DNA of 64,000 nt. It comes from an uncultured Anaerolineales bacterium (GTDB taxonomy: Bacteria > Chloroflexota > Anaerolineae > UBA2200). Shown here piece by piece: positions 2,021 to 41,207 of this stretch (the first letter of the stretch is position 1; each line of letters starts with the position of its first letter). The translations under genes and the position numbers were made by a program. The notes beneath the pieces are model-generated. The model was not told the origin of the DNA and did not search any database. It saw nothing but the letters and a program-made list of their open reading frames with translations. The stretch is taken from assembly GCA_964478075.1 (NCBI GenBank), contig CAYZGO010000004.1:60492-124491 (forward strand). The letters run 5' to 3'.

Positions 2021-3298
2021 ATGATGCGTTACTACCTTTGGACAATTGGCTGCCAGATGAACGACGCAGATGCCGCCAGAGTACGCCAGGAGTTAGCGAA
2101 GATGGGCTTCTGGCGCACCTCTGATCCTACAGAAGCGGACCTGGTGGTCTTGATCACCTGCGTCGTTCGTCAAAGCGCAGAGGACAAAGTCCTGGGAAGG
2201 CTGAGTTCCCTGAAGCACCTGAAGCGTAGCAGGCCCCAAGCAGTCATCACGGTCATGGGCTGCTTCATTGACGATGAATCAGCCTTGCACGCCCGTTTTC
2301 CCTACGTGGAAGCTTTCTTCAAGCCCTCGGACGTCTCAGGCCTGCTCGAGTTCGTACGTCAGCGTACCCCAGGCGCACCAAGCCCCTCAAGCCAAGAACC
2401 CATCACCCACCCGACCAGTCAGGCCGTCTGCGCATTTGTTCCCGTCTCCTACGGATGTGACCACCATTGCACGTACTGCATCGTACGCCTGCGGCGTGGA
2501 AGGCAGCAAAGCCGCCCTTTGCCAGACATCCTCGATGAGGTACAAAGCCTGGCGCAGAGCGGAGTTCGTGAAATCACGCTGTTAGGCCAGAATGTCGATG
2601 CCTATGGACAGGATTTGGGCACTGGCGCACCGGATCTGGCTGACGTCTTGATGGCTGTGCAGCAGATAGAAGGGCTGTGGCGCATCCGTTTCCTTACCTC
2701 CCATCCTGGTGACATGAGCCTGAAACTGATCCGGGCTGTAGCGAGTCTGCCGAAAGTATGCCCGCATTTCGAGCTGGCCGTGCAGGCCGGTGACGACAGG
2801 ATCCTGCAACGCATGGGCCGCAACTACACAGTGGCAGGCTACCAGGAGTTGGTAGCCGCGATCCGTGACCAGGTGCCAGGCTGCAGCATTGCCACGGATG
2901 TCATCGTTGGCTTTCCCGGAGAAGACAAGGTTCAGTTTCAGGCCACGTACGATCTGTTGGCTTCAATACGTTTCGACGTCGTGCACATCGCCAGGTTCTC
3001 CCCGCGCCCAGGGACTCCCGCCATGCGACTGCCTGACGACGTACCTCCACAGGAAAAAGAAAGACGCCGCGCCTTGCTCGAAGAGTTGCAGAAGCAAATT
3101 GCAGGCGAGATAAACGCTTCGCTGCTGGGCCAGACTGTGGAGGTGCTGGTGGAAGAGTGCAAACGCGGCAGGTGGAAGGGACGTACGGTGACCAACAAAC
3201 TGGTTTTCTTCGAGGATGCAGCAGACTGGCGTGGCCGGCTTGCGCAAGTACAAATCACGCGGGCCGGGCCGTGGTCACTGCGGGGGCAGCCGGCTTAG
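2021..3298 (+). CDS. miaB: tRNA-i6A37 methylthiotransferase MiaB (radical SAM)
   Basis: N-terminus MMRYYLWTIGCQMN, radical-SAM CxxxCxxC (CDHHCTYC) and TRAM-like C-terminal region. Typical MiaB length of 425 aa. Confidence 0.9.
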   Translation: MMRYYLWTIGCQMNDADAARVRQELAKMGFWRTSDPTEADLVVLITCVVRQSAEDKVLGRLSSLKHLKRSRPQAVITVMGCFIDDESALHARFPYVEAFFKPSDVSGLLEFVRQRTPGAPSPSSQEPITHPTSQAVCAFVPVSYGCDHHCTYCIVRLRRGRQQSRPLPDILDEVQSLAQSGVREITLLGQNVDAYGQDLGTGAPDLADVLMAVQQIEGLWRIRFLTSHPGDMSLKLIRAVASLPKVCPHFELAVQAGDDRILQRMGRNYTVAGYQELVAAIRDQVPGCSIATDVIVGFPGEDKVQFQATYDLLASIRFDVVHIARFSPRPGTPAMRLPDDVPPQEKERRRALLEELQKQIAGEINASLLGQTVEVLVEECKRGRWKGRTVTNKLVFFEDAADWRGRLAQVQITRAGPWSLRGQPA

Positions 3299-4778: not shown

Positions 4779-5960
4779 CTATTCACTGGCTGCGCTCACA
4801 ACCTCACCCGCGCACGCACTGGCCTCGCAGACGTAGATCTCCGGCGTCACGCCCATCTCCTCGCCGTAGCGAGTGGCAACTTGCTGCGCGAATGCCGAAG
4901 CTTCTTCCGAGCGCACCAGGTTGACTGTGCAGCCGCCAAATCCGGCGCCGGTCATGCGTGCCCCCAGGCAGCCTGGGGCACTGCGCGCCAGGTCGACCAT
5001 ACAATCCAACTCTGGGCAACTCACCTCATAGTCATCTCGCAAACTGGCATGCGAGAAGTCCACCAGTCGCCCAAACTCGGCCACATCTCCTGCCCGCATC
5101 GCTGCCACAGCCTGCAGCACACGCTCGTTCTCGCTGACCACGTGCGCGCAGCGCTTGCGCACGACAGGCGGCAAACTGTGACCATGGCGAGCCAGAACCT
5201 TGCTCGTCACATCGCGCAGGGCCCTCACTTGCGGCAGATACCGTCGCAGCAATTCAACGCCCTGCTCACATTCCTGCCGACGCGCATTGTACTCCGAGTC
5301 AATGAGGCCACGGCGCTTCATGGTATCACATACGACCACGGACACACCAGGCGGCAACGGCACAGACTTGCAGCGCAGGCTTCGACAATCAATGAGCAGC
5401 GCATGACCGCGCTGGCCCGACACAGCGATGAACTGATCCATGATGCCACAGCTCATGCCCACAAACTCGTTCTCCGCCCGCTGACAGAGCAGAGCCAAAT
5501 CCAGCGGTGATACTTTCAGCGCGCACAAGGCGCGAAAAGCAACCGCCGTGGCTACTTCAATGGCTGCCGAAGAGGACAGGCCGGACCCGATAGGCACGTT
5601 CCCTGCAATCACCGCGTCCATGCCGTGCAGCGCAAAACCCTGCTGCTGGAACATGAGCGCGACGCCGCGTACATAGTTGCTCCAAGGCGCAGACGGGTCA
5701 GGCGTAACCTGCTCCAGTGAGAACTCGCTGCCTTGCTCAAAGTTGACCGACCATAATCTGACCCAGGCGTCAGGCCGCGCACGTGCCGCAAGCACAACCT
5801 GGCGATCAATGGCCACGGGCAGCACAAAGCCAGCGTTGTAGTCAGTGTGCTCACCGATGAGATTGACGCGGCCTGGAGCCTGAAACAAACGCGGCTGGCC
5901 GCCAGGGAAGCGCTGCGCGAAAACCTCTCTCACCTGCTGGTACAAATCCTTTGCTCCCAT
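4779..5960 (-). CDS. galK: galactokinase
   Basis: GHMP kinase motifs: RVNLIGEHTDYN at the N-terminus and PIGSGLSSSAA. Start at the internal ATG (MGAKDLYQQ) with an AGGAGGG RBS. Confidence 0.9.
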   Translation of the reverse strand: MGAKDLYQQVREVFAQRFPGGQPRLFQAPGRVNLIGEHTDYNAGFVLPVAIDRQVVLAARARPDAWVRLWSVNFEQGSEFSLEQVTPDPSAPWSNYVRGVALMFQQQGFALHGMDAVIAGNVPIGSGLSSSAAIEVATAVAFRALCALKVSPLDLALLCQRAENEFVGMSCGIMDQFIAVSGQRGHALLIDCRSLRCKSVPLPPGVSVVVCDTMKRRGLIDSEYNARRQECEQGVELLRRYLPQVRALRDVTSKVLARHGHSLPPVVRKRCAHVVSENERVLQAVAAMRAGDVAEFGRLVDFSHASLRDDYEVSCPELDCMVDLARSAPGCLGARMTGAGFGGCTVNLVRSEEASAFAQQVATRYGEEMGVTPEIYVCEASACAGEVVSAASE

Positions 5961-6079
5961 GCAGAAACCCTCCTGCGTCGGGTGCTGTGACTGCTGAATG
6001 TTGATAGCCGTGATGGGTCTCGTCTTACCGCCGAGCACGCAGAGCCTTTCGGGTTTCTCTGCAGCCCTTCTGGCCTGAG

Positions 6080-6108
6080 AGTATACTACATGCGTAACAG
6101 AGTTACAA
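6080..6108 (-). promoter_or_regulatory. putative promoter for galK (TTGTAA - 17 - TATACT on minus strand)
   Basis: Read on the minus strand: TTGTAA, 17-nt spacer, TATACT. About 115 nt upstream of the galK start. Confidence 0.3.
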
Positions 6109-6204
6109 TCATGGACTAGGCAGAACCAGGAGCATCCCATAATCCGGAGCCGTCGAGTTATTTGACGGCACACTGTTTCCGGCTAGAATATGGCTACCAA
6201 CCCA

Positions 6205-6235
6205 CCCTCCCGGAGGTTCTCAACCTCCGGGAGGG
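6205..6235. repeat. REP hairpin (CCCTCCCGGAGGTT ctc AACCTCCGGGAGGG) flanking the RAYT gene, 5' side
   Basis: Perfect 14-bp stem with a 3-nt loop, immediately upstream of the IS200-like/RAYT ORF. Confidence 0.7.
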
Positions 6236-6263
6236 TACAGCGGCACAGCAAAGGGGGTAGAGC

Positions 6264-6842
6264 ATGCCCCGCCGGGGCGACGTGTTCGCTGCCGAGAACT
6301 ACTACCACATCTACAATCGAGCGGCGGCAGGCGGCCTGCTATTCTTCAACTCCAGCAACTACGAATACTGCTTGCGCCTAGTCAAGCGGTATCAACAGCA
6401 GTATGGGGCCACCGTGATAGCTTACTGCCTGATGCCCACTCACTACCACTTCCTGCTGAGACAGGAAAGCGATGAGCCCCTGTCCAAGTTCATCGGTGTG
6501 CTCTTCAATGCCTATGTGCAGGCTGTGAACCGGCAACTGGGACGCAGTGGTACCCTATTCGAGGGGCGCTTTCGTCACGTGCGGGTGGACCGGGAAGAGT
6601 ATCTGGTGTATTTGTGCCGATACGTCCATCTGAACCCAGTGGAAGCAGGACTGGTTTCTCGACCTGAAGACTGGCTCTATTCCAACTACCGAGAGTGGAC
6701 TGGACAGCGCGCCGGGACCCTGAAGGACGAGGCATTCATCTTGGAGAGATTCGCAACGCCTGACGCGTATCGACGCTTTGTAGCCGATTGGCAAGGCGCA
6801 GAGCGCTTTGGTGAACAGATACAGAAGTATGTTTGGGACTGA
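6264..6842 (+). CDS. REP-associated tyrosine transposase / IS200-like Y1 (HUH) transposase
   Basis: HUH motif CLMPTHYHFLL and catalytic Tyr region LCRYVHLNPVEAG. Both sides are flanked by the CCCTCCCGGAGGTT hairpin. Confidence 0.8.
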   Translation: MPRRGDVFAAENYYHIYNRAAAGGLLFFNSSNYEYCLRLVKRYQQQYGATVIAYCLMPTHYHFLLRQESDEPLSKFIGVLFNAYVQAVNRQLGRSGTLFEGRFRHVRVDREEYLVYLCRYVHLNPVEAGLVSRPEDWLYSNYREWTGQRAGTLKDEAFILERFATPDAYRRFVADWQGAERFGEQIQKYVWD

Positions 6843-6850
6843 CGCGCCCA

Positions 6851-6880
6851 CCCTCCCGGAGGTTCTGAACCTTCGGGAGG
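6851..6880. repeat. REP hairpin flanking the RAYT gene, 3' side (one mismatch)
   Basis: CCCTCCCGGAGGTT ctg AACCTTCGGGAGG. Sits between the RAYT stop and the RBS of the next gene. Confidence 0.7.
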
Positions 6881-17877: not shown

Positions 17878-17925
17878 CGTTTACGCCTTCCGTTTACGCC
17901 TCTGGCGTAAACGGAAGGCGTAAAG
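17878..17925. repeat. 21-bp near-perfect palindrome (CGTTTACGCCTTCCGTTTACGCC tctg GCGTAAACGGAAGGCGTAAAG) inside an 825-bp non-coding gap
   Basis: 20/21 complementary arms with a 4-nt loop. Flanking sequence carries further, less perfect inverted repeats. Confidence 0.6.
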
Positions 17926-18295: not shown

Positions 18296-19378
18296 TCAGT
18301 GGCCGAGCAAGTGCGGAAAGGCAACTCGCGTTGCCACTACGAGCCTATCAGTCAGCGCTTCTATCACTGCTTCCGTGGATACCGCCTCCAGACACATCCG
18401 CTGGCGGCAGCCGCGCCGCTGCTCAACGCCGCACGGCGCGCAAGGTGTTGTGCCTCGCAGTATGCGCACCAATGCTCCGCGTGGTGCCCACACGTCCGCG
18501 TCGGTTGGCCCGAATATGGCCACTGTAGGCACGCCCACGGCCGCTGCCAGGTGGCTCACCCCTGAGTCGTTGCCCAGATAAGCCTGGCAGCGTGCCAAAA
18601 TCGCCGCTAGCCGGTGCAGAGACAAGTTGTGCAGCATGATGCATTCCTGCCCGTCCAGCGCTTGCCTCACCTTGCCAACAGCGCTGGCATCTGCCGGGCC
18701 GCTGAGCAGCAAGATGCGCGGCCCACGTTCACGCGCCAGGTACTGCGCTACAGCGGCAAAGCGCTCTGCAGGCCAGTTCTTCGCCGTGCTGCCGCTGCCA
18801 GGATGTATGGCCACGACCAGTTGATCTCCCAGGCTGTGCTCTTTCCACCACTGCGCGGCATCCTGCTGATCCGCCGCTGTGAGTGCCAGACATGATGGTT
18901 CAGCCTTCGTTGCCACACCTAGCTCCCGCAGAGGCTGCTGCAGATACTCACTCATGTGCACGCGCAAATACGGCACTGGCCGCGCGTCGAAGCTCAGCAC
19001 CTTGCCACGAGCCGCACGCGCCAGGTTGCGCGCGAAAGCATGCGCTGGCGGCGTGGCATAGGAGACAACGAGGTCAAACTGATCGAGGTAGCGCTGGAGC
19101 CGCACGCTGGGCACTGCATCCGGTTGGAACAGGGCGCTCAGGTCGGCACGGTCAAAAGATGACACAGCGGTGACCACGGTGCGGCCAGCCAGCAACCGCA
19201 GTACCGCCAGGTCGCCCATCACCTCAATAGCAGCTTCCGGGAACCTGGCCCGCAGTCCCTCCAGGGCCGGCAGGGTGAGCAAAACGTCGCCCAGGGCACC
19301 GGGACGCAGAACCAGTATCCAGTATCCAGTTGCCAGTTGCCGGTTGTCAGTTACCAGTTTCCAGTCACCAGTTGCCGG
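18296..19378 (-). CDS. glycosyltransferase family 9 (heptosyltransferase-like); 5' end runs into a heptanucleotide repeat tract and has no canonical start codon
   Basis: Conserved GT9 N-terminal strand WILVLRPGALGDVLLTLPAL lies upstream of the TTG that the ORF track used as start. The open frame continues to a TAA at 19379-19381 with no ATG/GTG/TTG between that stop and the motif. Confidence 0.65.
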   Translation of the reverse strand, partial: PATGDWKLVTDNRQLATGYWILVLRPGALGDVLLTLPALEGLRARFPEAAIEVMGDLAVLRLLAGRTVVTAVSSFDRADLSALFQPDAVPSVRLQRYLDQFDLVVSYATPPAHAFARNLARAARGKVLSFDARPVPYLRVHMSEYLQQPLRELGVATKAEPSCLALTAADQQDAAQWWKEHSLGDQLVVAIHPGSGSTAKNWPAERFAAVAQYLARERGPRILLLSGPADASAVGKVRQALDGQECIMLHNLSLHRLAAILARCQAYLGNDSGVSHLAAAVGVPTVAIFGPTDADVWAPRGALVRILRGTTPCAPCGVEQRRGCRQRMCLEAVSTEAVIEALTDRLVVATRVAFPHLLGH

Positions 19379-19427
19379 TTACCAGTTCTCAGTTGCCAGC
19401 TACCAGTTGCCAATTGCCGGTTGCCGG
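19312..19427 (-). repeat. heptanucleotide tandem repeat (CYGGYAA on the gene strand, 16 units) overlapping the 5' end of the GT9 gene
   Basis: Sixteen contiguous 7-nt units on the minus strand: CCGGCAA CCGGCAA TTGGCAA CTGGTAG CTGGCAA ... CTGGATA CTGGATA. Begins 30 nt after the hutU stop. Confidence 0.8.
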
Positions 19428-24196: not shown

Positions 24197-26017
24197 CTAC
24201 TCACTGCTCACCACTCGCAGTTCCACGTCGTCCAGGTACACCGCCGTGATGCCATCGTGCCCATCGTTTTTCACACCGAAGCGCAGATTGACGCGCTGCC
24301 CTGCGTAGCCCAGCAGGTCGAAGGTGCGCAGGTTCCAGGCTTGATTGTGGTCTGTCCAGTAGGTGCAGTCTGACTCGCCACCGCCGCTAGTAGGGAGCAC
24401 GCAGAAGTAGATGAGATCCCCATCCACCTGCGCGCTCACTGGAAAGTAGTAGAAGGACAGCTCCGCCTGCGTCACCCCGCTGGGGATATCCACCGTCTGC
24501 TGCACAGAGGAGTAGCTCTCCACGTTGTAGCCAGTGTCAATCCCCAGGCGCATAGAGCGCGAGCCGCTGTGCGCACGGCCCACAGAGTAGCCTGCCGGGT
24601 AGGTGGTCCGCAAGATCTCCCACGCCTCCTCCCTCTCAAAGCTGTGATTGAGAATCAACTGTGTGTATTGTGGAGTGGACGTTGCAGTCGCCGTGGGCGT
24701 AGGCGATGGTCCAGTCGTAGGCGTCTCCGAGACTCCAGGCGTGAGGGAAGGGCTGGGTGAGGGCGTCGCACTTCCCGTGAGCGTGGGCGAAGGACTGGGC
24801 GATGGCAGTGCAGTCGCCGTAACCGTAGGGGAAGGGCTGGGCGAGGGCGTTGGACTCGGCGTGACCGTAGGCGAAGGGCTGGGCATGGGCGTCGGATAGC
24901 CTCGCAGCACGATGGGCAGAAAGGCTCTGGAAACCAGCTCTTCGAAAAGGCCATAGGACAATCCGGCCTGGTACACCGCCTCTGCCACCGTCCGCGGGTC
25001 AGGGGCAATACTGTAAGGTGTGTCGTCAAAGGCATACGCTCCCACAATCCAGACAGAGCCTTGAAAAACCAACGTGCGCTCATTCATGGGCAGCGTAGGC
25101 GAGCCAGGGTTCAGGCTGTGGCTGGCCTCGTAAGCATCAAAGCCGTGGAACAACAGTGCGTCCACGTCCCAACCACCAGCAACCAATGCATCGCGCTGCT
25201 GAATCAGCGTTGCGTATGCTTCCGCTGCCTGGCCAAAACGCTGTATCCAGGCCTCAGCGAAATGGCCTGCCGCGGCTGCATATTGCATCGTGTACAGAGG
25301 GTAGTGCACCACCACCTCCGAAGGCCAGCCAAGCGTGCGCGCAGCGTCCTCCAAGACCATCTGCTCAATGTCCTTGTGGGTGGCCGTAGGTGAAGGCACA
25401 TGCGTAGGAGTAGATGTCGGCGTGGCTGTCGCGGACGTAGGCGAAGGAGAAGCTGTAGGCCCACTGACGGTGATGGAATCACCGATCCACGTGGCCACGA
25501 TCGGTTCCGCGCAGTGGTTCGCCAAGACGCCACGGGTGAAGGTGATGCCACTGGTACCCGGTCTGAGCGCACGGAAAGTAATGCGTGCCAGCACGCCGCT
25601 TCCGCTCGCCGGCTCTCCAGGCGGAATGAGGGTCACTGTGTAAGTGATGGCGCCTGTCTCGTTCACAGCCTCATTCCGCGCCGGATAGAGCCACAACAAA
25701 TCCAGGAAGTCGCCTGGCTCAATCTGCACGCCAGTCCTGGCGGGGTGTGCGTCCTCTACCCACAGCACGTTGGGATCAAAAGAGACGGTCAAGTCCAACC
25801 CATAGAGATTCACGACGTCCCGCACCTGTATCTCGACGATGGCAGTCTCGCCCGCTGCCACCACGCTCGAAGCAGGCACGATGAGCACCTGCGTACTTTG
25901 CGTCTCTTGGCCATCCAAGATGCCAAGAGACTGTGTGCCCCGTGCATCCCCGGCGCCGAGCAGCAGCAAGGTAAGCGCCATAGCGACCAATGACACGAAC
26001 ACAGTCAGCCTGCGCAT
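24197..26017 (-). CDS. secreted cohesin-domain protein with Pro/Ser/Thr-rich linkers and a C-terminal beta-rich domain
   Basis: Signal peptide, then a cohesin-like domain ([27 protein letters not shown]...[10 protein letters not shown]), two PT/PS linkers and a C-terminal domain of about 150 aa. Confidence 0.7.
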
Positions 26018-26299
26018 GCTTTACCACCTTGGCATTTGTGGAGATCAAAACGAGGAACTAGGAAACATGCAGGACTGGAAGCCACGCTTCTCACACACGG
26101 ACGGGCGACAAACCATGTCCATCGCTTGCGCACAGCACACGCTAGCAGTCTGGCTTCTGAACAGTCACCCACGCACCTGAGGCGCACCAATACAAATGAC
26201 ACAAGTCGCCAGCCGGGCCCCTATCGCTCAACATCTCCGCACCGCCGTGAAGCAGGCGGTGCTGGGGTGCCGTCCTGCAGATTCCCCCCCCCAGGCTCC

Positions 26300-26332
26300 A
26301 GGTGACCGGCACCTCTAAGGTGCCGGTCACCT
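26300..26332. terminator. perfect 14-bp hairpin (AGGTGACCGGCACC tctaa GGTGCCGGTCACCT) downstream of the LysM-cohesin gene
   Basis: Lies 25 nt past the stop of the 26357-27442 gene on its 3' side. No U-tract, so it is a GC-hairpin type terminator or RNA-stability element. Confidence 0.4.
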
Positions 26333-26356
26333 GATATGTCCAGGCGTCAAATCAAC

Positions 26357-33028: not shown

Positions 33029-33643
33029 ATGACGCAAGGGGATAGCAGCAGATACGCTTGTCCCCGGGAGGTCAAGAACACATTGAACCCACTTGAAATC
33101 AGGCCCTGGGAAGTTCTCGAATCCTCGATTGTCTTCTCCAACCGCTGGCTGCGCGTGCGCAAGGACGTCTGCCACACCAACCGGGGCAACGTCACTGACT
33201 ATTATCTCGTGGAACGCTCCGACTATGTGCTGATCGTGGCGCTCACGCCAGAATCGGAAGTGCTGGTGACGCGCCAGTACAAGCACGGCGCCAGGCAGGT
33301 GGTGCGCGAGCTACCGGCGGGCTACGTCGAAGACGGTGAGGACCCGCTGCAATGCGCACACCGTGAATTGCGCGAGGAGACCGGCTACGAAGCCGCCAGG
33401 ATGGAGCAACTGGCCGTGCTGTTCGCCTCGCCTAGTGCGTCGCGGCACCGCGGGCACCTGTTCCTGGCTACCGGGCTGCGCCGTGCCGGCGAACAACGTT
33501 TGGACACCAACGAGAAGATCGTGGTAGAGAAGATGGATTTTGCCGCAGCAGTGCAGGCCGCCGCACACAATCAGGTGTTCGAGGGCCTCAGCAGCACCGC
33601 GGCGCTGCTCATGGCCTGGCAGCGGCTGCACGGTGCAGACTGA
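33029..33643 (+). CDS. NUDIX hydrolase (ADP-ribose pyrophosphatase-like)
   Basis: Nudix box GYVEDGEDPLQCAHRELREETGY. N-terminal WEVLESSIVFSNRWLRVRKD is typical of ADPRase-type Nudix proteins. Confidence 0.75.
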   Translation: MTQGDSSRYACPREVKNTLNPLEIRPWEVLESSIVFSNRWLRVRKDVCHTNRGNVTDYYLVERSDYVLIVALTPESEVLVTRQYKHGARQVVRELPAGYVEDGEDPLQCAHRELREETGYEAARMEQLAVLFASPSASRHRGHLFLATGLRRAGEQRLDTNEKIVVEKMDFAAAVQAAAHNQVFEGLSSTAALLMAWQRLHGAD

Positions 33644-33719
33644 CCCGACATCGTAGAGACGTAGCATGCTACGTCTCTACCGCTGCACCGCCGCCAAGAC
33701 CAGGCCTCTAGGAGGAACA

Positions 33720-34346
33720 ATGGCTCGCTCAAGAGAAGAAGCTCACTTACCTGCTCTATACAAGGCTTACCAGGACATGCAGAAGCTCGACCCTTACAAG
33801 GTCGCTTTCACGGCAGCCTGTGACTTTCGTCCGGATGAAGAAGGGGGGCGCTTTCTGATCCGTTTCTTTGGTGTAGACTATGTGGTCACCTTCCCGCGCA
33901 TCTCGGTACGCAGTGCCAGCGGTCAGGAACCGGACGTTGCCACACGCTTGATCATCCTGCACTACCTCATCCATGCTGACGGCACGCCGCCCGCCGACCG
34001 CTGGATCGCCTTCCGCGAGCTGCCAAACGGCCTGGTCTACGACCAGGCTTTTCGGAAGCGTTCCAGCCTGCGCTTGGTACGCGCGTATGGCGCCGATCCG
34101 AAAGGCTTCGCCGCAGCAGCGGAGGCTTTGGGCGGGGAGCGACTCACCTTTGGCGACGCCTCCTACATGTTCCGCTTGCTGCCGCGCATGCCCATGGCCG
34201 TGATCCTGCACCTTGGCGATGAAGAGTTTGGCCCGGCAGTGAACGTGCTCTTTGACGGTGCTGCAGGCCACTATCTGCCCGCCGAAGACCTGGCCGTGCT
34301 CGGCGGCATCTTGACCAGCAGGTTGATCAAAGCAGGGAACGTGTAG
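33720..34346 (+). CDS. DUF3786 domain protein
   Basis: Start at the ATG (MARSREE) behind an AGGAGGA RBS. Overall pattern LYKAYQDMQKLDPYKV...FLIRFFGVDYVVTFP matches DUF3786 family members. Confidence 0.6.
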   Translation: MARSREEAHLPALYKAYQDMQKLDPYKVAFTAACDFRPDEEGGRFLIRFFGVDYVVTFPRISVRSASGQEPDVATRLIILHYLIHADGTPPADRWIAFRELPNGLVYDQAFRKRSSLRLVRAYGADPKGFAAAAEALGGERLTFGDASYMFRLLPRMPMAVILHLGDEEFGPAVNVLFDGAAGHYLPAEDLAVLGGILTSRLIKAGNV

Positions 34347-36869: not shown

Positions 36870-37655
36870 CTAAGCTCGGCGCAGCACTGCGCGCAGGATT
36901 ATGAACACACCGAGACCGATCAGCGACGCTGCCCAGATGAGATGCAGCGACGCAGCCAATGGACTCACGCCTACGCCAACCACTGCCAGCACTCCCGCTG
37001 GGATCAAGGCCCACCAGTTGCGGCGATTGACAATAAAGACAACGAGGAACGCCAGGGCAATGCTCAACAGGATGAACATCGCTACCCACTCGCCGCCCAC
37101 TAGCTCGCCCAGGCTCAACACCACGCCCATGAGAGCCATAATGCCGCCAGCGATGAGAGCCCACCAGTTGCTCTCGCGATTCATGGCAAAGATAACCAGG
37201 AAAGGGACGGCGCTGCCCACAAAGCCCACAAGAAGGAGCACTGCGTCATGCAAACCCAATTCGGCCAGCACTACGCCGAGCCCCCAGGCACTGATTATGC
37301 AGCCCGGGATAAGAGCCCACGATGCCTCGCGGGTGCCCTGTTTGAAAAAGATGTAGAAGAATGGCAGGGCGCTGCCTGTAAAACCAACCAGCACTACGAG
37401 CCACCCTGGAAGCCCGCAAGCCCCAAGTAGCGAGCCCACTCCCCAAGCGAACATGATGCTGCCGGGGATGAGCGGCCACCATTCCACAGTGTTGCTGAAC
37501 CACAGAGACAGAAAGAAAGCAGAACCGGCAAGCAGCACCAGACCACCCCAAAGCGGTCCGGTGAGCGTGATCTGCCCCAACTGCACGAGGAGCAGGATGA
37601 TGCCTGCAACGACCAAAAACAATCCCGCAGTTACGCGCCACCAGTTCTTCTTCAT
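36870..37655 (-). CDS. integral membrane protein with four internal repeats of about 55 aa (NWWALIPG motif)
   Basis: Repeated blocks ...WWPLIPGSIMFAWGVGSLLG..., ...SWALIPGCIISAWGLGVVLA..., ...NWWALIAGGIMALMGVVLSL..., ...NWWALIPAGVLAVVGVGVSP.... Start at the second ATG (MKKNWW) with a GAAAGGA RBS. Confidence 0.5.
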   Translation of the reverse strand: MKKNWWRVTAGLFLVVAGIILLLVQLGQITLTGPLWGGLVLLAGSAFFLSLWFSNTVEWWPLIPGSIMFAWGVGSLLGACGLPGWLVVLVGFTGSALPFFYIFFKQGTREASWALIPGCIISAWGLGVVLAELGLHDAVLLLVGFVGSAVPFLVIFAMNRESNWWALIAGGIMALMGVVLSLGELVGGEWVAMFILLSIALAFLVVFIVNRRNWWALIPAGVLAVVGVGVSPLAASLHLIWAASLIGLGVFIILRAVLRRA

Positions 37656-37910
37656 TGTCAACATCCTTTCTGTCTGCTGTCTGGTTTGTGCTACAAGCCT
37701 GCAATCGCCGGCTGAGCACGATGCGGCAGCTTTATGCGACCAGACGGGATTATAGCACGTTGCACCCTATCTGGCAATCAGCAGTCTTGGTCGGGGTCTA
37801 TGTCAGATTTGCGGCAAGTTTGTGGTGGATGAGGTCCCGTAGCTCGCTCTACCACCGCCCAGGCAACTCAGCCCACACGAAGAGGATAACCTGAGCACCT
37901 TCGTGACCGT

Positions 37911-37983
37911 GTCAAGGACGCTCAAAGGGGACGATAGTCCCCGTCTCCAGTCAGTACGCTTTGTTGGCCACGTGCCTGGCGTA
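37911..37983 (-). ncRNA. sRNA/terminator-like element copy B (candidate), about 85% identical to 16596-16668
   Basis: Same GCTCAAAGGGGAC-[AG]ATAGTCCCCGTC...CACGTGC.TGGCGTAC.ACGCGGA core. On the minus strand it ends in a GGGGACUAUCGUCCCC hairpin plus UUUGAGC. Confidence 0.3.
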
Positions 37984-38236
37984 CGACGCGGAGTAACATC
38001 CACCTCGATCTGAGCCAAGTAGCCCTCAGACGTGATGAAGTGACTGATAGAGAAAAGATGCGCGAACTAAGTCTTGAGATTATCGAACTGGTAGAACTCG
38101 AGTCTGGCGAGGGCAGCGCGGAGCAAGTGCCGACCGAGATCTTTGAGAGCAACCGGGGCCGTGCTAGTCTCTGCACGACCGATGTCGTCAACCTTGAGGT
38201 CGTCGAGGATAGTCGTTTCGCGTGTGTAGCCGGTGA

Positions 38237-38543
38237 GTCGGAATGTCATTCCGACGTACTATGCTGCGTCGGTCAGAGCTCGCTCCGTAAGTCGGAATGT
38301 CATTCCGACGTAGCACGCTCCGTCCGTCGGAGTTCGCCCCGTTGGTCGGAATGTCATTCCGACATAGCACGCTCCGTCCGTCGCAGCTCGCTCCGTTGGT
38401 CAGAATGTCATTCCGACTTAGCACCCTCCGTCCGTCGGAGTTCGCTCCGTTGGTCGGAATGACATTCCGACATAGCACGCTCCGTCCGTCGGAGTTCGCC
38501 CCGTTGGTCGGAATGTCATTCCGACTTACTACGACGTACTATG
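38237..38543. repeat. tandem array of a palindromic repeat with 54 bp periodicity, six copies of the 19-bp core, last unit partial (GTCGGAATGTCATTCCGAC core plus 35-bp near-identical linker); BIME/REP-array-like, adjacent to the second RAYT gene
   Basis: Six near-perfect 19-bp palindromes at 54-bp periodicity. The linkers are about 85% identical to each other, so they are not CRISPR spacers. All three forward frames stay open only because the unit is 18 codons. Confidence 0.8.
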
Positions 38544-39171
38544 TTGTGATGTATGTCCAGGGCCACGTTTCCCAATCAGAGGTCAGGCCCGCTTTTACCG
38601 GATTGTTGACTATGTACTGTACGATGCGGCCTAGTTCGTTCGCGTCCCGCACCACGTGATCATAACTTTCCGCCTGCCAGAACGTACCTTGCCGACCCAA
38701 GACCTTGTTTGCCTGTCGCGCCGTATGTCGTTTGAGGGATTGGAGGATCCGATGGAGGGCATAATACGTGCCGTCTTGACGTTGCAGCGGTGTACAGACC
38801 AAATGCACGTGATTGGGCATAATGCAAAATGCCAGTAGATCATATACCCGCCCGTGACGATAATGCAGGGCCTGAACAACCACCGTGGCCACTCGTGGGT
38901 CTGCTAGCCAGTGTGGGCCATACTCTGAAAAGTCTACGGCTGCGTCCCATAGCCCAAACGCGCGTCGCTCATCCAGATAGGCTTGCTTCTGGCGCTCTTG
39001 CGTGTCGCCGATGTGTGATAGCGCGCGTTCCTCTTGGTCGCGTTTTTCCTGCAACGCGGCGAGTACTGCACGCGGCAACGAGCCAGCAAGTCGGAAAGTG
39101 ACGAACAATGTTGCTCCGCCTGGCTGCCAATGCGGTAAATGGCGACGATAGAATACGCGATGGTCTGTCAT
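38539..39171 (-). CDS. REP-associated tyrosine transposase (RAYT, IS200-like Y1 HUH transposase), second and distinct family
   Basis: YRRHLPHWQPGGATLFVTFRL N-terminal RAYT motif, HUH motif CIMPNHVHLV, then GTFWQAESYDHVVRD and a catalytic Tyr region (VQYIVNNPVKAGL). Start at the ATG (MTDHR); the ORF track's TTG is 15 nt further up. Confidence 0.75.
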   Translation of the reverse strand: MTDHRVFYRRHLPHWQPGGATLFVTFRLAGSLPRAVLAALQEKRDQEERALSHIGDTQERQKQAYLDERRAFGLWDAAVDFSEYGPHWLADPRVATVVVQALHYRHGRVYDLLAFCIMPNHVHLVCTPLQRQDGTYYALHRILQSLKRHTARQANKVLGRQGTFWQAESYDHVVRDANELGRIVQYIVNNPVKAGLTSDWETWPWTYITT

Positions 39172-39195
39172 AGGCCGGATTGACAATCCGGCCTA
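39171..39195. repeat. perfect 12-bp palindrome TAGGCCGGATTG a CAATCCGGCCTA overlapping the RAYT start
   Basis: Seen directly at the 5' boundary of the second RAYT gene. Possible terminal hairpin or operator. Confidence 0.5.
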
Positions 39196-39983
39196 CCGTA
39201 AGACTGCCGGTTGAGCATTTGTCTTCCTCGCTTACATGGTACTCGGTGTCATCAATCTCGCGCAGGTTGACGTAGAATTGATTCGCATCCGGAATCTCCC
39301 GCACGAAGCGCTTCTGGTCGGCAAGGCTGAACTGGGCAAACTCTCGGTGTGTTCGCCGAACTGGTCGTAGTCCATTCTGCAACTGAGGGAGGCTTGCTCC
39401 TGCATTGTCTCCTAGAAGCGCGTCGGATCGTTCTCGGCTCTGTCCAGCGAGAGAGAGTGCGGTAAAAGTCAAGACCCAATTTGAGTCGAGAAATGAACCT
39501 TAGCAACCGAAAAAGAGACGCATTGAACCATGCCTGCCCACGTTGGTTTTTCGAAGAGTGGGGGCTCGAATGGATGCTTATGGTGGCCGGAGGTATACGG
39601 TTTGCTGGTCAGGAGCGGAACGCGTCCCGTCTGCGGTTCGCTCCGTGGCACGACCGGCCCCGTCGAGCGAAGCGAGCGGCTGAACACTAGCGTGGGCACT
39701 CGACCTTGCCTGGTAGTCACACACGTCAAACCTTCTGCGTGATCCTGACGTCTTTCGCAGGCCAATTCTAGCACATGTTGTCCATTCTCGCAATGCTGTA
39801 GCGTGCGGTAGTCTCTTGTGTTGTGATGGTGCGACTTGTTCCATGCCTTGTCAAGCACATCGGCAGCAGTGACCTGACTATACTGTAATAGCCCCCTACT
39901 GCCCTTTAATCCTGATTTCATCTTCGTGCCGTATCATTCCAGCGAACCCAGACTCCTTGCCAGAGCAAGAGTTGCCTTGTCTT

Positions 39984-40012
39984 TTGTAAGCTCGCAGCAG
40001 TTGTGGTAAGAT
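39984..40012 (+). promoter_or_regulatory. putative promoter for the glycan operon (TTGTAA - 17 - TAAGAT)
   Basis: About 65 nt upstream of the AGGAGG RBS and ATG of the first epimerase gene. Confidence 0.3.
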
Positions 40013-40076
40013 ATGCCGCCGCCCGTTCGACATCTGGGGTCTGCCCCGGCGGGCGGCGCAGGCTTGCTTAGGAGGT

Positions 40077-41207
40077 ATGATGCGTTGTGACGTCCTGGTA
40101 ACCGGCGGTGCGGGCTTTATCGGCTCACATCTGACCGATGCCCTGATCGCCGCCGGCCACAAAGTGCGCGTCTACGACAGTCTCGAAGCTCAGGTTCACG
40201 GTGAAGGCGCGCGTGCACCCTCTTACCTGAACCCTGAGGCAGAGTTCGTGGTCGCCAAGCTGGGAGATCGCCAGGCATTGACCAAAGCCCTGTCTGGTGT
40301 CAAAGTCGTGTTCCACCTCGCTGCCGCAGTCGGTGTGGGTCAGTCCATGTATCAGATTCAGCATTATGTAGAGTACAACACCCTGGGAGGCGCAATCCTG
40401 CTCGACATCCTGGCCACGGAGCGGCACCGCGTGCGAAAGTTGGTAGTAGCCTCCTCAATGTCAATCTATGGTGAGGGAGCTTATCATTGCACGCAATGTG
40501 GCAAAGTATACCCACCCCCACGCCCGCTGAGACAACTGAAGGCACGCGATTGGGAAATGCATTGCCCGACTTGTGGTCGCGTCGCAACGCCCCTCCCCAC
40601 CGCAGAAGACAAGGCACTCCAGCCCACATCCATCTATGCCATAACCAAACGTGACCATGAGGAGATGTTCATCTGCGTGGGCCGGGCGTACCGGCTGCCC
40701 GTGGTAGCTCTGCGCTTTTTCAACGTCTACGGTCCCCGGCAGGCGCTGTCCAATCCCTACACCGGAGTTGCAGCAATCTTCTCCGCACGCTTGCTCAATG
40801 ACCGGCCACCCGTCGTTTACGAGGACGGATTGCAGAGCCGTGACTTTGTGCACGTCAGCGATGCGGTACGTGCTGCCATCCTGGCCATGGAAAGCAAAGA
40901 GGCGGACTACGAGCCAATCAATGTGGGCACAGGGCATGCCACCACCATCCTCGACGTGGCACGGCTGCTGGCCGAGAAACTGCACAAGCAAGACCTCACA
41001 CCACAGATCAGAGGGCAGTTCCGCCAGGGCGACATCCGCCACTGCATCGCGGATACCACCAAGATTCGGGAGCGCCTGGGCTACGCGCCCCGTGTCTCCT
41101 ACGAAGATGGCATTGATGATCTCGTCACCTGGGTCAGCAGCCAGATAGCAGAGGATCGTTTCAGTGACGTGGAGTCGGCACTGAGCGCACGGAAACTCGT
41201 GGTATAG
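40077..41207 (+). CDS. NAD-dependent epimerase/dehydratase (extended SDR) with an inserted C4 zinc-ribbon
   Basis: GGAGFIGSHL Rossmann motif and YxxxK (YAITK) catalytic dyad. An insert of about 40 aa, CTQCGKVYPPP...CPTCGRV, sits between the conserved segments. Confidence 0.8.
   Translation: MMRCDVLVTGGAGFIGSHLTDALIAAGHKVRVYDSLEAQVHGEGARAPSYLNPEAEFVVAKLGDRQALTKALSGVKVVFHLAAAVGVGQSMYQIQHYVEYNTLGGAILLDILATERHRVRKLVVASSMSIYGEGAYHCTQCGKVYPPPRPLRQLKARDWEMHCPTCGRVATPLPTAEDKALQPTSIYAITKRDHEEMFICVGRAYRLPVVALRFFNVYGPRQALSNPYTGVAAIFSARLLNDRPPVVYEDGLQSRDFVHVSDAVRAAILAMESKEADYEPINVGTGHATTILDVARLLAEKLHKQDLTPQIRGQFRQGDIRHCIADTTKIRERLGYAPRVSYEDGIDDLVTWVSSQIAEDRFSDVESALSARKLVV

Follow-up and report, generated by a model that had tools for sequence, protein, structure and literature searches.

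We analyzed a DNA stretch of 64,000 nucleotides (hereafter the window) from an uncultured Anaerolineales bacterium (assembly GCA_964478075.1, contig CAYZGO010000004.1), focusing on a gene for a REP-associated tyrosine transposase (RAYT) and on the repetitive extragenic palindromes (REPs) at both of its ends. The gene, RAYT2, is located on the minus strand at 38539-39171, occurs once in the window and encodes an intact protein of 210 aa of the HUH-Y1, TnpAREP-like type, as judged from its open reading frame (ORF) and profile matches. It is flanked by a hairpin touching its ATG (REP-B) and by an array of six hairpins of a second type (REP-A), of which copy 6 starts 13 nt past the stop codon. Remnants of the methyltransferase (mod) and restriction (res) genes of a Type III restriction-modification (R-M) operon are found to either side.

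The RAYT2 gene and its flanking hairpins

RAYT2 starts with ATG (an in-frame TTG is found at 39186) and ends with TAG at 38539-38541. A preceding reading of the same DNA without database searches (the sequence-only reading) had placed a 210-aa RAYT beside an array, and the profile searches agree with this assignment: the protein scores 82.9 bits against the NCBIfam model REP_Tyr_transpos, above the curated threshold of 80, and 27.7 bits against Pfam Y1_Tnp (cutoff 23). It contains the HUH and tyrosine motifs (YRRHLPHWQPGGATLFVTF, HVHLV and QYIVNNPV), and its sole match in PDB, a weak one (E = 1e-5), is E. coli TnpAREP (4ER8). A protein search returned 3358 homologs. Compared with homologs of 82-85% identity, dN/dS ranges from 0.07 to 0.11 at a dS of 0.86-1.3, a substitution pattern indicating that the RAYT2 protein is under purifying selection.

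The array of six head-to-tail REP-A hairpins occupies 38237-38525 (no strand assigned) and was delimited by Tandem Repeats Finder, which reports a period of 54 bp, 5.4 copies, 89% matches and no indels, together with a pattern search. The REP-A hairpin, GTCGGAATG-N-CATTCCGAC, has a 9-bp stem around a 1-nt centre. Its pattern GTCGGAATGNCATTCCGAC has six matches in the window, all within the array and spaced by exactly 54 bp, and zero in 100 shuffles, in full agreement with the six units of a 19-bp palindrome described in the sequence-only reading. The copies start at 38237, 38291, 38345, 38399, 38453 and 38507; five are exact, and the one at 38399 carries one mismatch. Single-stranded REP-A folds with an energy of -7.4 kcal/mol (z = -4.5). 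The five 35-bp linkers show a mean identity of 83%, close to the roughly 85% given before, and of 91% among units 2-5; the most divergent unit is the one farthest from RAYT2.

In its register, the array contains one REP type, with all units in the same orientation relative to their flank. The comparison with bacterial interspersed mosaic elements (BIMEs) made in the sequence-only reading is therefore apt for the tandem module of REP and linker, but not for the orientation, which is head-to-tail instead of alternating. Each linker holds a weaker second hairpin (z = -2.1), and the linker segment CTCCGTccGTCGGAgttcg matches the left REP arm plus flank at 13/19 positions, which is suggestive of a degenerate second REP without establishing one. 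The GTAG-type tag 5' of the hairpin reads GTAG on the sense strand of REP-B and has degenerated to GTTG on the inner array units; most array units carry GTTG on the plus strand and CTAT or CTAA on the other strand, as compared with GTAG/GTAA. In addition, an 11-nt junction, CA(A/G)CATAGTAC, which comprises the last RAYT codons and the stop, is repeated directly before the distal REP copy 1.

At the other end of the gene, the REP-B hairpin with its tag (39169-39196, minus strand) was delimited by its palindrome, its folding and its recurrence at other loci. The perfect 12+1+12 palindrome TAGGCCGGATTGaCAATCCGGCCTA at 39171-39195 shares one base with the RAYT2 start codon, just as had been noted from the letters: the ATG consists of the last palindrome base followed by TG. 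On the RAYT-sense strand the element reads 5'-GTAG-GCCGGATTG-T-CAATCCGGC-CTAT-G, with a folding energy of -12 kcal/mol (z = -7.6). Two compensatory stem-pair changes and the loop base set it apart from REP-A (REP-A form, GTAGGTCGGAATGNCATTCCGACCTAC; REP-B form, G(C/T)CGGATTGN(1-2)CAATCCG(G/A)C). The REP-B core GCCGGATTGNCAATCCGGC is also present in L148 and L156/L157 (comparison loci are denoted by L and a number), and the core CGGATTGNCAATCCG occurs in 21 loci, beside or within other RAYT genes. By these comparisons, REP-B is a sister REP type of REP-A and not an unrelated structure. This kinship, like the decayed R-M setting described below, had been missed in the sequence-only reading, the core of which stands.

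Since the ATG lies in the foot of this stable hairpin and no obvious ribosome-binding site is present at the start, translation of RAYT2 is probably held low. In a scan of 37600-40200 for sigma-70 promoters and terminators, no candidate close to the array or to the RAYT2 start exceeded the level expected from shuffles; one good promoter-like site, at 37777-37749 on the minus strand, lies upstream of a neighbouring membrane-protein gene. At gathering thresholds, Rfam models detected only a tRNA-His in the whole window and no known RNA family at the RAYT2 locus.

REP-A in related genomes and across the RAYT2 clade

RAYT genes from other metagenomes that are 82-85% identical to RAYT2 (L003-L007) are followed, immediately past the stop codon, by the identical 19-bp hairpin, and further REP-A copies are located just upstream of the gene. 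Their arrays have periods of 32 and 40 bp, with linkers unrelated to those of the window; over all homologous arrays, periods of 32, 40, 28-29 and 77 bp were found. Because the hairpin remains identical while synonymous sites are near saturation, it is the constrained part of the array.

These periods also bear on the question of whether the 54-bp repeat, equal to 18 codons, encodes a repetitive protein, for example by the ORF at 38040-38462 on the plus strand. In favour of this, the period is divisible by three, several frames are fully or almost fully open, and a gene caller predicted a 134-aa product on the plus strand over the array in the near-identical genome L001. However, the homologous periods include non-multiples of three and the linkers are unrelated, so no protein repeat is conserved. 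Frames are open on both strands, as expected from a stop-poor palindrome, and the part of the ORF outside the array has no family match, while its opposite strand carries the res fragment. Two forward frames of the array contain one stop each and the third contains four, contrary to the sequence-only reading, in which all three were open; one reverse frame is fully open. Homologous arrays thus keep neither frame nor peptide, which effectively refutes a coding repeat and leaves it a negligible chance. By this comparison the array is non-coding and the ORFs called across it are artefacts, the latter in line with what had been proposed from the sequence.

A scan of species-representative genomes revealed at least 119 stretches with the exact REP-A hairpin. 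Most of the matches listed are solitary, and their flanks continue the palindrome to GTAG/GTAA-GTCGGAATGNCATTCCGAC-CTAC/TTAC. The full unit is accordingly the 27-bp GTAG-GTCGGAATGNCATTCCGAC-CTAC, which is the same on both strands and folds with -11.6 kcal/mol as single-stranded DNA (ssDNA). The tagged copies among these matches come mainly from metagenome-assembled genomes (MAGs) of Chloroflexota/Anaerolineales, and also from Ignavibacteriota, Chlorobiaceae and Bacteroidota, with several REP-A contigs per related MAG. The few proteobacterial matches among those listed are mostly without tags and may be coincidental. In relatives, the density around a given site is ~13 per 778 kb, i.e. ~1 per 60 kb. 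The hairpin next to RAYT2 is hence a dispersed, GTAG-tagged REP in related genomes, which substantiates the cognate REP cluster that had been proposed beside the gene.

The same data speak to a reading of the locus as a CRISPR-like array, with a short palindromic repeat and 35-bp spacers. Although the repeat is regular and palindromic and the intervals are of spacer size, the "spacers" are 83-91% identical to one another, which refutes a CRISPR array. The repeat has a length of only 19 bp, it occurs elsewhere as dispersed single copies with GTAG/CTAC tags, and the adjoining gene is a RAYT and not a cas gene. We therefore consider this interpretation practically excluded.

For a survey of the clade, 80 metagenomic loci were pooled with the other fetched loci. 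Flanking palindromes were counted if perfect, with a stem of at least 7 bp and within 120 bp of the gene end, using non-redundant genes flanked on each side by 150 bp or more of sequence; arrays were defined as tandem repeats with a period of at least 20 bp and at least 2.5 copies. Palindromes are present near both gene ends in 52/66 clade genes. Arrays adjoin the gene downstream in 19/74 and upstream in 11/77 cases, on either side in 16/66 and on both sides in 7/66. Their periods range from ~22 to ~78 bp, and copy numbers reach 18. Units with two alternating palindromes, as in BIMEs, are found in L079, L134, L181 and L209; other arrays, including that of the window, are head-to-tail with one palindrome per unit. 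The stems vary by lineage, while the apical (A/T)TG-N-CA(T/A) and the GTAG...CTAC tags recur. In contrast, REP-A sites away from RAYT genes (n = 120) comprise 109 singlets, 9 doublets and 2 clusters of three or more. Arrays are thus strongly enriched beside RAYT genes (19/74 versus 2/120 dispersed sites).

Taken together, we consider it likely that the RAYT2 locus represents a REPtron, i.e. a RAYT gene bracketed by its cognate REP hairpins. The protein family, the identity and conservation of the REP, the non-coding nature of the array and the array enrichment at RAYT genes directly support this reading. Array growth by local tandem duplication, as opposed to repeated insertion, is favoured by two junctions: in L127 the repeated 77-bp unit starts within the RAYT protein match, 34 nt ahead of its end, and in the window the sequence of the last RAYT codons recurs before REP copy 1.

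Several observations weigh against a REPtron. Neither REP-A nor REP-B occurs in the window outside the RAYT2 locus (at up to 3 mismatches), which leaves dispersal in this very genome putative; as the density in relatives is only ~1 per 60 kb, a lack of dispersed copies in 64 kb says little. The array units with degenerate tags may be poor RAYT substrates, and the array may grow without the enzyme. Within the scanned region 37600-40200, no promoter-like site is left directly upstream of RAYT2 now that mod is lost, which makes its expression uncertain. Moreover, the array is identical in L001 (GCA_034430235.1), which has a syntenic contig with a 99-100% identical RAYT copy and is a near-identical strain (7 mismatches in 10.57 kb, none of them in the array). 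The comparison of array length between strains that the sequence-only reading had proposed thus revealed no change: two independent assemblies show neither expansion nor contraction. This comparison covers L001, the contigs of L002, L003, L004 and L007 ending within or just past the array. The same applies to the contig of L129, and most or all of these are probably short-read assemblies. Because contigs end at REP arrays, metagenome assemblies probably understate both the frequency and the length of arrays. Of the seven differences between the window and GCA_034430235.1, six fall within 38 bp (39997-40034), just upstream of an epimerase gene starting at 40077.

The array could also be an element selected by the host for structural or regulatory reasons, independent of the RAYT, which would merely be adjacent, and produced by replication slippage at hairpins. 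Candidate roles are a stabiliser of mRNA in the 3' untranslated region, an attenuator or insulator between mod/RAYT and res, or a site for gyrase or nucleoid proteins. The degenerate GTTG tags of the inner units and the stable array length between the two assemblies would fit such a role, as would the position of the L079 and L148 arrays, which separate mod/RAYT from res at a point where differential expression would be of consequence. Known effects of REPs concern mRNA stability and termination, and REPs also bind gyrase (PMC2817692 and PMC3733652). Against this view speak the enrichment of arrays at RAYT genes (19/74, against 2/120 at dispersed sites), their presence on either gene side and in unrelated gene contexts, and close relatives that differ in period and linker and retain only the RAYT-type hairpin. 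Furthermore, no T-tract terminator was found in the scan of 37600-40200. We regard a host element as a rather improbable explanation; it is partly compatible with the REPtron and the two are not mutually exclusive.

Besides their flanks, RAYT genes of this clade can contain REPs themselves. In 10 of ~88 distinct RAYT2-clade homologs (L051, L084, L108, L115, L118, L138, L148, L157, L177 and L193), a REP palindrome lies in frame inside the coding sequence (CDS), always in the variable loop just past the HUH motif (~aa 108-148), as in HVHMVIE-VGRNDIPTY-KP. These internal REPs mostly carry GTAG...CTAC-type tags, their palindrome varies by lineage, and they often match the flanking REP of the same gene (identical in L193, and the type-B flank in L108). 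RAYT2 has no palindrome in this loop; a REP-like segment suspected there was rejected, with a match by eye of ~10/27 nt. In a full-text literature search we found no paper describing REPs inside RAYT genes. Similarly, L003 has a REP-A copy (3192-3210) in frame inside an otherwise intact Type III mod gene, where it encodes ...GRNVIPTYV... and represents a tolerated intragenic REP.

A particularly simple arrangement is found for the RAYTs P0042 and P0024 (L207 and L211, ~5950-6680), which are 69-72% identical to RAYT2. On different metagenome contigs they share one tight slot, with an AMP-binding ligase gene on one side and a gene for a transporter of the major facilitator superfamily (MFS) on the other. 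Each is flanked by a single REP-B on each side, and at least three of these four REPs begin within the adjacent stop codon. From their layout, these loci are a minimal REPtron with conserved synteny. This synteny, together with the mod/res flanks common to other loci, is consistent with vertical inheritance.

Restriction-modification remnants and other features of the window

Upstream of RAYT2, a frameshifted C-terminal remnant of a Mod methyltransferase was detected at 39218-39411 (minus strand) by tblastn with the Mod protein of L003. It corresponds to approximately residues 565-629 of that 638-aa protein, whose domains are N6_N4_Mtase and TypeIII_RM_meth, and is made up of two high-scoring segment pairs in different frames (67% over 42 aa and 41% over 34 aa). 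In L003/L004, a full-length mod gene (638 aa, no internal stop) is located directly upstream of the RAYT gene. On the other side of the array, an internal fragment of the Res subunit lies at 37992-38246 (minus strand; tblastn with the ResIII protein of L079). It matches residues 578-661 of this 886-aa protein (Pfam ResIII) with 49% identity over 86 aa (E = 6e-16) and contains an in-frame stop at 38067-38069. The fragment abuts the distal REP copy 1, and its first few aligned residues overlap the REP, probably as a spurious extension of the match.

In relatives, mod and res appear to be uninterrupted around the RAYT gene; in L079 and L148, the gene order is mod, REP, RAYT, REP array and res. 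Since the homology of the window runs past both hairpins into mod and res, the module can be placed in the mod-res spacer of a Type III R-M operon, which, to judge from these alignments, is decayed in this genome; the R-M remnants themselves were directly observed. The deletion that took away ~1.7 kb from the start of res has its endpoint at the array. A junction formed by recombination with a REP inside res was considered and rejected, as the res gene of L079 has no REP at that position. In relatives, the module within its mod-res setting is seen at 1-3927 of L079, 484-3163 of L148 and 3014-5955 of L003. The 42-codon piece of mod still shows a dN/dS of 0.12-0.38 between loci, including those in which only the C-terminal 64-126 Mod residues are detectable.

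The extent of this homology also matters for the idea that REP-B, RAYT2 and REP-A together form an autonomous insertion sequence (IS) of the IS200/IS605 type, with the hairpins as its left and right ends. In agreement with that idea, the gene is bracketed by subterminal hairpins, as in IS200/IS605, and homologs of 67-85% identity occur in several different gene contexts. Nevertheless, the conserved block is not bounded by the hairpins but continues into mod and res, and the P0024 and P0042 RAYTs occupy one slot on different contigs, which suggests vertical inheritance. RAYT2 is present as one copy in 64 kb, scores above the threshold of the RAYT equivalog model and shares with RAYTs their characteristic long N-terminal region. 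An autonomous element is therefore very unlikely.

The window contains a second RAYT-like gene with flanking palindromes at 6201-6880 on the plus strand (CDS 6264-6842), recognized by its identity to RAYT2 and its profile score. Its product is 33% identical to RAYT2 over the C-terminal half. The gene lies between two direct copies of a 33-34-nt palindrome (6201-6236 and 6847-6880), which is unrelated to REP-A and REP-B. Of the two RAYTs with unrelated hairpins proposed in the sequence-only reading, the separate palindrome is thus present, but the protein reaches only 70.1 bits against REP_Tyr_transpos and remains below the cutoff of 80.

Further repeats were noted at some distance from the array. 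A 28-bp perfect palindrome, GTAGAGACGTAGCATGCTACGTCTCTAC, at 33653-33680 has GTAG at its beginning and CTAC at its end. It bridges the interval between the ORFs 33029-33643 and 33666-34346, extends into the start of the second, and resembles a lone member of a third family of GTAG-tagged REPs. Two other perfect palindromes, at 17880-17924 and 26299-26333, have stems of 21 bp and 16 bp with 3-nt loops, lack GTAG tags and are unrelated to the REPs. Tandem repeats of a 7-bp unit, CCAGTTG (19311-19425, ~14 copies, also scored as a 35-bp period), and of a 42-bp period (24740-24894, 3.7 copies) are unrelated to the RAYT2 array.

Proposed mechanism and comparison with known systems

By analogy with TnpAREP, RAYT2, as a domesticated HUH-Y1 single-strand nuclease/ligase, would bind the folded ssDNA hairpin via its tag, stem and loop, and would then cleave beside the hairpin and religate the strands (PMC8266576). 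Such an activity could spread the 27-bp GTAG-GTCGGAATGNCATTCCGAC-CTAC through the genome at low copy number. Directly 3' of RAYT2, one REP has been amplified locally and head-to-tail together with its 35-bp flank to give the six-unit array, probably by tandem duplication, which could proceed either by slippage or unequal exchange between hairpins or by RAYT cleavage and strand transfer between neighbouring REPs. In its present state, with GTTG-tagged inner units, it may propagate by slippage or unequal exchange and not by the enzyme. Because arrays are enriched at RAYT genes, the activity may be biased in cis, and an enzyme acting mostly in cis would favour array growth beside its own gene. 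The 5' REP-B buries the start codon in its stem and probably keeps translation low. The module probably first resided in the mod-res spacer of the Type III R-M operon, which then decayed around it.

A more far-reaching proposal, which we put forward only tentatively and which may well prove wrong, combines these points: the enzyme would act mainly in cis, giving rise both to the REP arrays at the gene and to the in-frame REPs inside RAYT coding sequences, and the module would have been established in the mod-res spacer for a long time, moving with R-M operons between phyla. If true, such hitch-hiking could explain the identical 27-bp REP in Chloroflexota and in Ignavibacteriota, Chlorobiaceae and Bacteroidota.

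To our knowledge, RAYT/REP systems have been studied almost wholly in Proteobacteria, and the same architecture is now seen in uncultured bacteria of the Chloroflexota type and of the Fibrobacteres-Chlorobi-Bacteroidetes (FCB) group. The REP is unusually simple here, being a symmetric 27-bp perfect palindrome. The comparative set amounts to a natural experiment: period, linker and synonymous sites all vary, but the hairpin stays fixed. The counts of 19/74 and 2/120 provide a quantitative hint that REP clusters form preferentially by the RAYT gene. For genome annotation, it is of practical value that ORFs called over arrays of this kind are artefacts, and that short-read assemblies are prone to contig breaks at them. 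The accepted picture is extended rather than changed, and candidate enzyme-substrate pairs are supplied for biochemistry.

The main features are all already present in the literature, to which this locus adds a further example. RAYT genes are flanked by REPs, with a direct association to BIMEs in about one third of them (PMC2817692); REPIN clusters repeated in tandem together with their flanks, one next to each RAYT, have been described (PMC3116915), as has the REPtron concept (PMC6006769). For GTAG REPs, PMC3733652 reports occurrence in Chloroflexi, dimers in head-to-tail arrangement, clusters in which flanking DNA is reiterated as well, and in-frame copies within genes. The TnpAREP mechanism and a perfect-palindrome group of REPs with its own TnpAREP group are covered by PMC8266576. 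RAYT Group 4 is common in Cyanobacteria, Chlorobia and Caldilineae, with modest numbers of flanking 16-mers, ~14 per replicon (PMC5581495).

Like the E. coli REPtron (yafM/tnpAREP with BIME-2; 4ER8), the RAYT2 locus consists of an HUH-Y1 gene bracketed by REP clusters with a GTAG-type tag, and the available sequence contains one RAYT2 copy. In E. coli, the REP palindrome is imperfect and bulged, its 5' GTAG is unpaired, and the REPs alternate in orientation within BIMEs. In contrast, the palindrome is perfect here, GTAG pairs with CTAC in the dispersed copies, so that both strands form the same tagged hairpin, and the array is head-to-tail; the tandem reiteration of REP and linker is shared with BIMEs, the two-REP unit of alternating orientation is not. 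Unlike E. coli TnpAREP, RAYT2 has ~60 extra N-terminal residues and a longer post-HUH loop. The IS200/IS605 elements share the HUH-Y1 core (Pfam Y1_Tnp), the subterminal hairpins and the single-strand chemistry, but differ from this locus, which shows a conserved block extending past the hairpins, no tnpB, a single RAYT2 copy in the available sequence and a match to the RAYT equivalog.

The REPIN clusters of P. fluorescens SBW25 (PMC3116915) are alike in the ordered tandem repetition of an element plus flank beside a RAYT. There, the unit is a REPIN of two inverted REPs, with 71 or 110 bp and hundreds of copies, whereas here it is a single symmetric REP with a 35-bp linker, and sites are sparse in relatives (~1 per 60 kb). 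RAYT Group 4 (Bertels et al. 2017, PMC5581495), as described, is similar in its taxonomic spread and low REP density. The GTAG REP superfamily (Di Nocera et al. 2013, PMC3733652) shares the GTAG tag, the tandem units with flank and the presence in Chloroflexi; neither the 27-bp family nor the link to the Type III mod-res spacer was found in the portion of that article consulted. The perfect-palindrome REPs of S. maltophilia and Marinomonas (Corneloup et al. 2021, PMC8266576) have a short perfect stem, as seen here. They belong to a different phylum and a divergent protein, and the hairpin described here has a single-nucleotide loop and belongs to a clade known from sequence. Nonetheless, the loop positions found to be critical there have a counterpart in the apical (A/T)TG-N-CA(T/A), which recurs while the stems vary, and the tolerance of GTAG variants reported in that study fits the GTAA and GTTG tags observed at these loci.

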